A stretch of DNA of 64,000 nucleotides from Patescibacteria group bacterium. Its GTDB lineage: Bacteria > Patescibacteriota > Minisyncoccia > UBA9983. Under the pieces are notes generated by a model. It was not told the DNA's origin. It searched no databases and saw only the letters and a list, made by a program, of their open reading frames with translations. This document shows positions 5,935 through 7,452 of this stretch, piece after piece. The stretch covers positions 11,533-75,532 of the forward strand of contig JAHIOX010000015.1 in assembly GCA_018895015.1 (NCBI GenBank), written 5' to 3'. Both the position numbers and the translations under genes were made by a program. The first letter of the stretch is position 1, and each line of letters opens with the position of its first letter.

Positions 5935-7452
<1,518 letters not shown>

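Follow-up and report, generated by a model that had tools for sequence, protein, structure and literature searches.

A conserved A/U-only 16S rRNA tail replacing the anti-Shine-Dalgarno motif, and residual Shine-Dalgarno sites, in a Patescibacteria lineage

Introduction

The 16S ribosomal RNA (rRNA) gene considered here comes from a Patescibacteria group bacterium (GenBank assembly GCA_018895015.1, contig JAHIOX010000015.1, positions 11,533 to 75,532), and its 3′ tail does not encode the CCUCC anti-Shine-Dalgarno (anti-SD) motif. The whole stretch of 64,000 nucleotides (nt) that was analysed is referred to as the window. The closest precedent is found in the same phylum-level group, where the anti-SD motif was detected in only 48% of Parcubacteria, with a loss that overlaps the group lacking ribosomal protein uL1, and where Shine-Dalgarno (SD) helices are probably not formed in the anti-SD-less members (Tsurumaki et al., 2022, RNA 28:1041, PMC9297842). 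The window resembles these genomes in having no CCUCCU at its 16S 3′ end and in its short 5S rRNA (106 nt against a 120-position model); it has no rplA by rplK or rplJ, so that it may also belong to the uL1-lacking group. That study differs in giving the frequency of motif detection only; the replacement tail, the mode of initiation and the residual SD sites are undescribed there.

Recurrent anti-SD loss is also known from reduced genomes, where it is tied to the loss of ribosomal proteins (Lim et al., 2012, PMC3457768; PMC6107228; Nikolaeva et al., 2021, PMC7782861). Organisms without CCUCCU are generally without SD motifs too (PMC6107228; PMC7782861), and no variant SD matching a variant anti-SD was found in 128 organisms (Amin et al., 2018, PMC6107228). 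In the window CCUCC is likewise gone from the 16S tail, most genes, the housekeeping genes among them, have no SD, and no motif complementary to the tail was found. Strong SD words are nonetheless enriched, standing 4-13 nt before five of the 57 first start codons and before 12 of the 742 internal ones (Fisher p = 0.005), and one gene pair has them conserved. The reduced-genome cases are mostly insect endosymbionts, Mollicutes and the like, in which the losses are scattered and involve few lineages, whereas the present case concerns a very large environmental clade with a conserved tail and some perfect SD sites.

Like the window, Bacteroidetes have few SD genes, A-rich upstream regions and a handful of SD-led genes, but they keep a canonical anti-SD that is hidden in the ribosome (Jha et al., 2021, PMC7797042), and here none is encoded. 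A sequestered anti-SD of the Bacteroidetes type was rejected for the window, CCUCC being absent from both the tail and the 230-nt spacer that follows it; regulated exposure therefore cannot explain the residual SD sites. Actinobacteria and Deinococcus are dominated by leaderless mRNAs, with a -10-like element at a fixed short distance from the start, and retain the anti-SD. Haloferax volcanii also shares with the window a -10-like element at a fixed short distance from its starts, and SD motifs in its 5′ untranslated regions are not used for initiation, a possible parallel to the unread SD sites described below (PMC3986360). Retention of the anti-SD sets all such leaderless-dominated prokaryotes apart from the present case.

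Loss of the anti-SD is already published for this lineage, and the window is a further example of it. In the literature searched there was no description of the A/U-only replacement and its conservation, of the graded erosion of the tail, of the clade-wide leaderless signature or of the conserved SD blocks at an orphan gene pair. The reading that we favour, at a probability of about 0.8, is that this lineage of the Parcubacteria/Paceibacteria type lost the anti-SD from its 16S rRNA and initiates translation mostly without SD pairing.

The 16S rRNA gene and its 3′ tail

The 64-kb window has one 16S gene only, whose 3′ end is made up as follows.

5935..7454, minus strand: full-length 16S rRNA gene (match to Rfam RF00177 at 1389.6 bits over model positions 1-1533)
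5971..5948, minus strand: helix 45 (CACGCGUAGC-GGAA-GCUGUGCGUG), intact in the Rfam alignment
5947..5945, minus strand: GAU after helix 45
5944..5930, minus strand: 3′ tail UAAUUUAAACCAAUC in place of CACCUCCUUA, A/U-rich and without CCUCC
5884..5931, minus strand: hairpin directly after the tail (UCUUUUCUUUC ... GACAGAAAAGA), inverted repeat I15 of 11 nt, 91% complementary

The initial annotation had described this gene as lacking CCUCC, with no CCTCC in the 230 nt up to tRNA-Ile. The first statement is borne out by the full-length Rfam match and its 3′ alignment, in which helix 45 and GGAU are intact and Infernal sets UAAUUUAAAC against the model's cACCUCCUUu with zero C matched; a sequence search of the 230 nt between tail and tRNA-Ile likewise returned no CCTCC. 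All four C of CCUCC have become A or U in the window, with the GAU, the tail length and the single-stranded setting retained, the tail being bounded by helix 45 on one side and by the hairpin at 5884..5931 on the other.

The same tail is present in other assemblies. Tail and spacer are identical in GCA_022013055.1, of which contig JAKLRF010000007.1 contains the window, and GCA_018896515.1 is identical to the window from 16S through murB. A third assembly, GCA_020052905.1 (locus L246), belongs to a different species, as its MurB is only 71% identical, although the last 651 nt of its 16S gene are 99.5% identical to those of the window. The tail is identical in loci L001, L002 and L246, and in all three assemblies the 16S gene is traversed by an unbroken contig, the lengths being 78.8 kb, 7 kb and 4.6 kb. 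The contigs of the MurB homologues P0012 and P0013 have no 16S gene, and a 56-nt exact pattern for close relatives had zero matches in metagenomes. As the tail is shared by three assemblies from at least two species, the sequencing, homopolymer or assembly error that the initial annotation had allowed for is excluded. The other objection that it raised, a CCUCC overlooked a few bases further 3′ in close relatives, falls as well, since none was found there.

Tails of related 16S genes

More than 200 Patescibacteria 16S genes from two collection scans have a comparable tail, A/U-only over about 11 nt (consensus CAWUUWW...), and in both scans the helix 45 sequence of the window recurs in many loci. 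The first scan, of the GTDB species genomes, admitted only 16S 3′ ends in which four positions of the tail are not C, and is by design biased to anti-SD-less tails. It gave at least 120 matches, and those listed are almost all metagenome-assembled genomes (MAGs) of Patescibacteria, together with the complete genome of Minisyncoccus archaeiphilus. Among the 110 unique anti-SD-less tails of the matches listed, position +1 holds C in 92 and U in 16, +2 is A in 107, +4 is U in 101, +5 is U in 103 and +6 is A in 87. G does not occur at +2 to +7 or at +9 and is found in at most two of the 110 tails at +8, +10 and +11; C is rare save at +9, and background composition resumes from +12. This conservation by position indicates that GAUCA and the +5 U of the canonical GAUCACCUCCUUA have been retained, that the four C have been lost and that about 11 nt are constrained.

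The second scan, which was run to offset the bias of the first, was tail-agnostic and searched metagenomes for the exact helix 45 of the window, yielding 119 tails (loci L126-L245). Only four are canonical (CACCTCCTTTC), while 13 are eroded (CACCTCA, CATCTCC, CATATCC, CATCACA, CACTAC and similar) and 10 are TTTCTCCTAGT-like with CUCCU kept; the remaining 92 are A/U-only, with CAATTAAAC as the commonest form (56). Behind one and the same helix 45, the tails of L126-L245 can be arranged in a graded series that runs from CACCUCCUUUC through CACCUCA, CAUCUCC, CAUAUCC, CACUAC and CAUAUCA to A/U-only forms. There is also a separate tail type, UUUCUCCUAGU, which retains CUCCU, and the contigs that carry it have SD words at 11 of 78 starts (14%) against 3.3% of internal start codons.

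Neighbour joining of 98 16S sequences placed the canonical tails at the base of the tree and gathered the A/U tails in a single large clade. The nearest neighbours of the window are one MAG each of Tagabacteria (distance 0.11), Niyogibacteria and Giovannonibacteria, and it is these, with source proteins named 'Patescibacteria group bacterium', that place the window in the Parcubacteria/Paceibacteria; its best named MurB matches are from Niyogibacteria and Terrybacteria. The tails of the neighbours, UUUUAAACUAAAC and UAUUAAAUCAAUC, are recognisably homologous to that of the window, as are the tails CAAUUAAAC and UAAUUAAA of relatives. The initial annotation had proposed a comparison with other Patescibacteria 16S genes, and its outcome is that the tail of the window belongs to a large Patescibacteria family of A/U-only tails. 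Judged from these comparisons, the tail is a conserved A/U-only sequence, and random spacer is ruled out. Such anti-SD loss marks a very large environmental clade which now has a cultured member, and it is concealed wherever the annotation of a 16S gene ends at helix 45.

Translation initiation

Gene starts were taken from the longest open reading frame (ORF), by which positional signals are blurred. In 216 anti-SD-less loci, TANNNT is found at a 6-nt spacer before 129 of 1208 predicted genes, with 34.5 expected (p = 1e-36), and the stricter TA[ACT]A[AT]T at the same spacer before 44, with 8.6 expected. A 6-nt spacer puts the -10 box at -12..-7 from the A of ATG, which is the geometry of a leaderless transcript. 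About 14 genes of the window, including glyA, rpsF, rplK and nusG, have a -10-like box 6-8 nt upstream. Many window genes also start close behind, or still within, the gene before them (gaps of -40 to +20 nt), so that translational coupling is possible. From these patterns initiation looks mainly leaderless.

SD words precede one of 17 starts in relatives with canonical tails and none of 67 in relatives with eroded tails, suggesting that selection was already relaxed before the anti-SD was lost. The route of loss that we propose is one in which SD use would have been low first, with many leaderless mRNAs, and the anti-SD motif would then have decayed stepwise to A/U under A/T mutation pressure. 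Ribosomes would now load on leaderless mRNAs, on A/U-rich unstructured starts and, inside operons, by coupling. The minority of SD-like sites could not act through an A/U tail; some would be leftovers of recently gained genes, and those before a 382-amino-acid (aa) gene and its NYN-domain neighbour would be selected for otherwise.

A compensatory A/U-rich SD was considered and rejected, since both the k-mer and the duplex-energy tests were negative. Enrichment near starts is no greater for words complementary to the tail than for words that repeat the tail itself, and duplexes with the own tail (-1.8 and -2.0 kcal/mol) show no gain over those with shuffled tails (-2.1 ± 0.2 and -2.3 ± 0.35 kcal/mol). 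The conservation of the tail points to a second role for it, and because it has no complementary partner, that role is probably in ribosome assembly or 3′ processing and less likely in the choice of mRNA.

The initial annotation had offered three readings of the absent motif. The second of these, that SD pairing has been largely abandoned, is supported by the family of A/U tails, by the lack of an SD at most genes, by the -10 box at leaderless distance and by the published loss.

Shine-Dalgarno sites in the window

The window nevertheless contains a few sites of textbook SD form.

57756..57765, minus strand: AAGGAGGTGA, complementary over all of its 10 nt to the canonical 16S tail and placed 7 nt before ATG 57751 of the NYN-domain gene (57251..57751; Pfam NYN)
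58983..58989, minus strand: GGAGGTG, 6 nt before ATG 58978 of the orphan 382-aa gene (57830..58978)
59046..59052, minus strand: GGAGGTG inside AAAAAAGGAGGTGAAA, an orphan copy in the 5′ leader of the 382-aa gene that no start codon follows at SD distance
54467..54473, minus strand: GGAGGTG, 6 nt before ATG 54462 of a 77-aa ORF (54229..54462)
51854..51858, minus strand: GGAGG inside ACAGGAGGCGGAAT, 6 nt ahead of a 152-aa ORF (51389..51847; ATG start) with no Pfam match
31547..31554, minus strand: AAGGAGGA, 8 nt ahead of ATG 31539, where a response-regulator receiver gene starts (31117..31539)
8095..8101, minus strand: GGAGGTG, 6 nt ahead of ATG 8090, the start of a small ORF that lies between secF and 16S
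Before ATG 7978, minus strand: GAGAGGTGA, preceding an 81-aa ORF
Before ATG 55835: AGAGAGGAGA, 6 nt before the real ATG of tmk, 55871 being merely the TTG of the longest ORF

The SD sites are real. GGAGGTG occurs 10 times in the window against 2.7 ± 1.7 in shuffled sequence, and none of 100 shuffles reaches 10. Six sites are found upstream of ORFs, at 6-8 nt from the start codon in five cases, and each has the TG extension of the canonical complement. A strong SD word is found at about 9% of the window genes of at least 100 aa, and when short ORFs, curated starts and weaker motifs are added about 13 of some 70 genes are SD-led. The sites that had initially been listed for the starts at 57751, 58978, 54462 and 31539 are upheld, while the one assigned to 55871 serves the tmk ATG at 55835 instead; those at 51854..51858 and 8095..8101, the GAGAGGTGA before 7978 and the orphan copy at 59046..59052 are additions to that list. 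The accompanying statement that housekeeping genes mostly have no SD was confirmed gene by gene, none being found in the window at glyA, nrdD, rplK, nusG, ssb, rpsF, rplJ/L, argS or metG. The strong sites all precede accessory or orphan genes, namely the 382-aa, NYN, 77-aa and 152-aa genes, the response regulator and the small ORFs by the 16S gene.

Over all anti-SD-less loci the excess of SD words is small, at 53 of 1190 starts against 243 of 9989 (p = 1e-4), and GGAGG peaks in these loci at a 5-9 nt spacer. SD-led genes elsewhere in these loci include purC-, purQ- and pyrE-like genes (identities read from the translations), and genes of this type are typical acquired metabolism in this phylum. 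In locus L010, from a Paceibacterota MAG with the tail CAUACAAUUAUU, AAAGAGAGGAGGTGA stands before a 280-aa protein (minus strand, position 6889), which we take to be NYN-like from its sequence, so that NYN genes may be recurrently SD-led in the clade.

A repeated element of about 100 nt also occurs on the minus strand. Its copies, at 51194..51300 and 52322..52420, immediately precede ileS (48299..51193) and a DUF559 endonuclease-like gene (51920..52321) respectively. The element is rich in paired CCUCC/GGAGG runs and folds into a long hairpin (-45.1 kcal/mol, z = -4.75), which partly buries CAAGGAGGGG, 14 nt before the ATG, and it has no match to an Rfam family.

The 382-aa/NYN gene pair

The 382-aa protein belongs to a family with just nine members among 5.8 billion clusters, and the three genomic contexts examined, L123, L124 and L125, which come from SRR22388083, SRR22388277 and SRR12113407, are all Patescibacteria-like. 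L123 and L124 have the same synteny as the window (SIMPL - X - NYN - secE - nusG - rplK), while in L125 the 382-aa/NYN pair lies beside secDF. These relatives of the 382-aa protein are 76%, 52% and 36% identical by BLAST, the last two being 50% and 29% identical by global alignment. The pair evolves fast, with 76% and 83% identity to L123 beside neighbours that are 98-100% identical, and the GC content of the 382-aa gene (0.496) is the highest in a window of about 0.40.

The window, L123, L124 and L125 all keep the leader block AAAAGGAGGTGA as well as TTGGAGG(T/A), which stands 4-8 nt before the ATG. In the window, L123 and L124 there are three conserved islands, these being a TATAAT box, the leader AAAAGGAGGTGA and the TTGGAGG before the ATG; L125 retains the two GGAGG islands. 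The AAAGGAGGTGA before the NYN gene is common to the window, L123 and L124, and the rest of the leader and the neighbouring intergenic DNA of the pair are unalignable among the relatives. The leader of the 382-aa gene (pair and leader together span 57251..59110) has a TATAAT, the start-less GGAGGTGAAA block and an upstream ORF (…MKILEV*) that stops 1 nt before the main ATG.

The 382-aa protein has no Pfam match and no Foldseek match in the PDB at E ≤ 0.001, and its AlphaFold model is of medium confidence (predicted local distance difference test score, pLDDT, 68.7). Neither it nor the NYN protein is represented in PADLOC or PHROGs, no relatives of the two were found in phage records by tblastn or in the scan of IMG/VR, and among 240 rRNA-anchored loci no homologue of either occurs besides L123-L125. 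A permissive Rfam search of 51100..59200, which takes in the SD-bearing leaders, gave no credible match.

The SD blocks of this pair appear from their conservation to be under selection, and the cause is the sole real puzzle of the locus. The pair may have been replaced repeatedly from a mobile pool, its sites may have a function independent of the 16S tail, or a canonical anti-SD carrier may have gone undetected. The conserved GGAGGUGA sites offer a clean natural test for SD functions that do not depend on the 16S tail.

Alternative explanations

Several points weigh against a lineage that has given up SD pairing. The perfect, conserved GGAGGUGA sites with their 6-8 nt spacing are what would be expected were a canonical anti-SD present in the cell. 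The contigs of L123-L125 carry no 16S gene, and their A/U tail is assumed from relatedness, NusG being 100% (L123) and 86% (L124) identical to that of the window; L246 serves as calibration, with a MurB of 71% identity and yet an identical tail. In the window alone the leaderless peak is weak, with TANNNT at 6 nt before six genes against 2.1 expected (p = 0.019). The 16S rRNA's mature 3′ end and the transcription starts are read from the sequence, and the search for a second rrs covered 64 kb of the genome, which leaves room for a divergent copy.

The initial annotation had suggested that the SD-bearing genes are recent imports. Under this explanation they, or relics of them, would stem from SD-using donors and their motifs would be neutral leftovers, which fits the position of the strong sites before accessory or orphan genes, the high GC content of the 382-aa gene and the purC-, purQ- and pyrE-like genes that are SD-led in other anti-SD-less loci. 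It also fits the 77-aa gene (54229..54462), an indel that is absent from L123, in which NusG is 100% identical. The 382-aa/NYN pair, however, does not follow: it is syntenic in L123 and L124, its SD blocks are kept even in L125 at 36% identity, a neutral 10-mer would not outlast neighbouring intergenic DNA that has become unalignable, and no donor appears in phage records, IMG/VR contigs, PHROGs or PADLOC. As an account of all the residual sites, import is a possibility at clearly less than even odds.

Alternatively, selection may keep GGAGGUGA at 6-8 nt spacing at a few lineage-specific genes, and in the start-less leader copy, for a reader of GGAGG(UGA) other than 16S rRNA: a protein, an RNA with CCUCC acting in trans, or a sub-population of ribosomes, with the sites of the pair as recruitment, stabiliser or regulatory elements. 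Such a reader would account for the over-representation of GGAGGTG (10 against 2.7), for the six TG-extended sites upstream of ORFs, for the survival of GGAGG islands amid diverged leader DNA and for the excess of SD words at starts across anti-SD-less loci, and the nine-member family in its Patescibacteria-like contexts offers no visible SD-using donor. On the other hand, no non-coding region of the window has CACCUCC on its transcribed strand, the occurrences of a GGATCACCTCCTT-like RNA gene in the window (10 matches with at most three mismatches) equal expectation (9.7), and Rfam found nothing in the leaders. Clear conservation is moreover confined to one gene pair, the tails of L123-L125 are not directly seen, and fast evolution together with a GC content of 0.50 against about 0.40 could equally mean repeated replacement from a mobile pool. 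We consider a reader of this kind unlikely.

The first of the three initial readings, in which the rrs copy of the window is degenerate and an intact CACCUCC copy lies elsewhere in the genome, would explain the perfect SD sites at once, and two tail types in one genome are known from Alteromonas (Amin et al., 2018, PMC6107228). It is unsupported and very improbable given that the 16S gene is full length and high scoring, that contigs of three assemblies cross it unbroken, that its tail is conserved over a large clade with no sign of free decay and that the housekeeping genes are without SD. The only complete genome of a cultured clade member, that of M. archaeiphilus, has one copy each of 5S, 16S and 23S (PMC12281837), and this single 16S (locus L021) ends GAU-CAUUUAUUUAUA, an A/U tail without anti-SD. 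The gene in the window is probably the working 16S of the cell, and probably the only one.

The third initial reading, an unusually encoded or processed 3′ end, is taken here with direct pairing by the tail: the anti-SD would be displaced, for example to the trailer UUCCUC at 5824..5829 in an untrimmed 16S, or the A/U tail would pair with A/U-rich motifs. The trailer is indeed unusually long (about 146 nt from helix 45 to the processing stem) and nearly identical in L246 including GAGAUUCCUCAAAC, and lineages with a CAUUUWUUU tail do have complementary A-rich words enriched near their starts (near/far ratio 3.6), but next to no credence can be given to either version, because no displaced CCUCC exists in the window or its relatives, UUCCUC pairs with just 4 nt (GAGG) of GGAGGUGA and is not kept at the homologous place in L072, L032 or L048, 232 trailers contain anti-SD-like 5-mers 47 times against 152 for their complements, CCTCC lies within 200 nt of the tail in only nine of 121 loci and at scattered positions, and for direct pairing the duplex energies bring no advantage over shuffled tails and complementary words in the YAAUUAAA group are no more enriched than same-sense words.

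Trailer, processing stem and tRNA-Ile

The precursor of the 16S rRNA has the following features beyond the gene itself.

7457..7482, minus strand: 5′ arm of the stem for pre-16S processing (inverted repeat I1, 26 nt, perfect), 3 nt upstream of 16S
5773..5798, minus strand: 3′ arm of the stem (GAACGGAACAAAAGAAAAAAUAUUAU), inverted repeat I1, starting 146 nt after GAU
5632..5704, minus strand: tRNA-Ile(GAU), by ARAGORN, downstream of 16S

The leader-trailer stem (26 bp, perfect) is asymmetric, lying 3 nt from the 5′ end of 16S and 146 nt from GAU, and the core of its 3′ arm, ACGGRACAAAAGAAA, is kept in the trailers of L246, L072, L032 and L048. The sequence AAUCUUUUCUUUCG, just past the tail, can pair with the 3′ arm, suggesting a possible processing switch. 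A terminator-like hairpin with a U-run is found at 5734..5768, between the processing stem and tRNA-Ile.

The spacer of L246 is that of the window, including the hairpin directly after the tail, save for a 63-nt insertion (L246 ~745..810, window ~5838), itself a hairpin, and compensatory changes in one neighbouring hairpin, where CCGCC/GGCGG has become CCCGC/GCGGG; the remainder is nearly identical despite the divergence of MurB.

The ATG of murB (5630) lies 1-2 nt past the 3′ end of tRNA-Ile, and L246 has the same arrangement (at 934..1006). With so short a distance, the murB mRNA would be essentially leaderless once the tRNA has been processed. The recorded murB products, of 380 and 348 aa, were over-extended through the tRNA by gene callers, and gene finders that assume an SD will misplace starts in such genomes.

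Other features of the window

The genes that bear on a possible link to uL1 are the following.

55943..56365, minus strand: rplK (uL11), by Pfam; followed by tmk (55206..55835) and not by rplA
24196..24735 and 23794..24189: rplJ and rplL, 31 kb from rplK; preceded by nrdD-nrdG, with no adjacent rplA

The same rplK-tmk junction is found in L123, and no Ribosomal_L1 domain was detected in the annotated ORFs of the 64-kb window.

The 23S and 5S genes (18724..21968, minus strand) are unlinked from the 16S gene, which lies 11 kb further downstream on the same strand, an unusual order. Between 5S and 16S there are a 252-aa ORF of no known function, ftsW, glyA, folD, a GH1 glycosidase, a methyltransferase, YdjM, EamA, secD and secF. 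The 23S rRNA is 3089 nt long owing to an insertion of about 55 nt near model position 312 (window ~21540..21625, minus strand).

There are also two genes for VirD4/TraG-like type IV coupling proteins (1518..3227 and 27761..30163), and a hydrogenase-maturation set at 32400..35757, consisting of hypD, a hypE-like gene and the C-terminal domain only of hypF, in what is otherwise a minimal genome segment.

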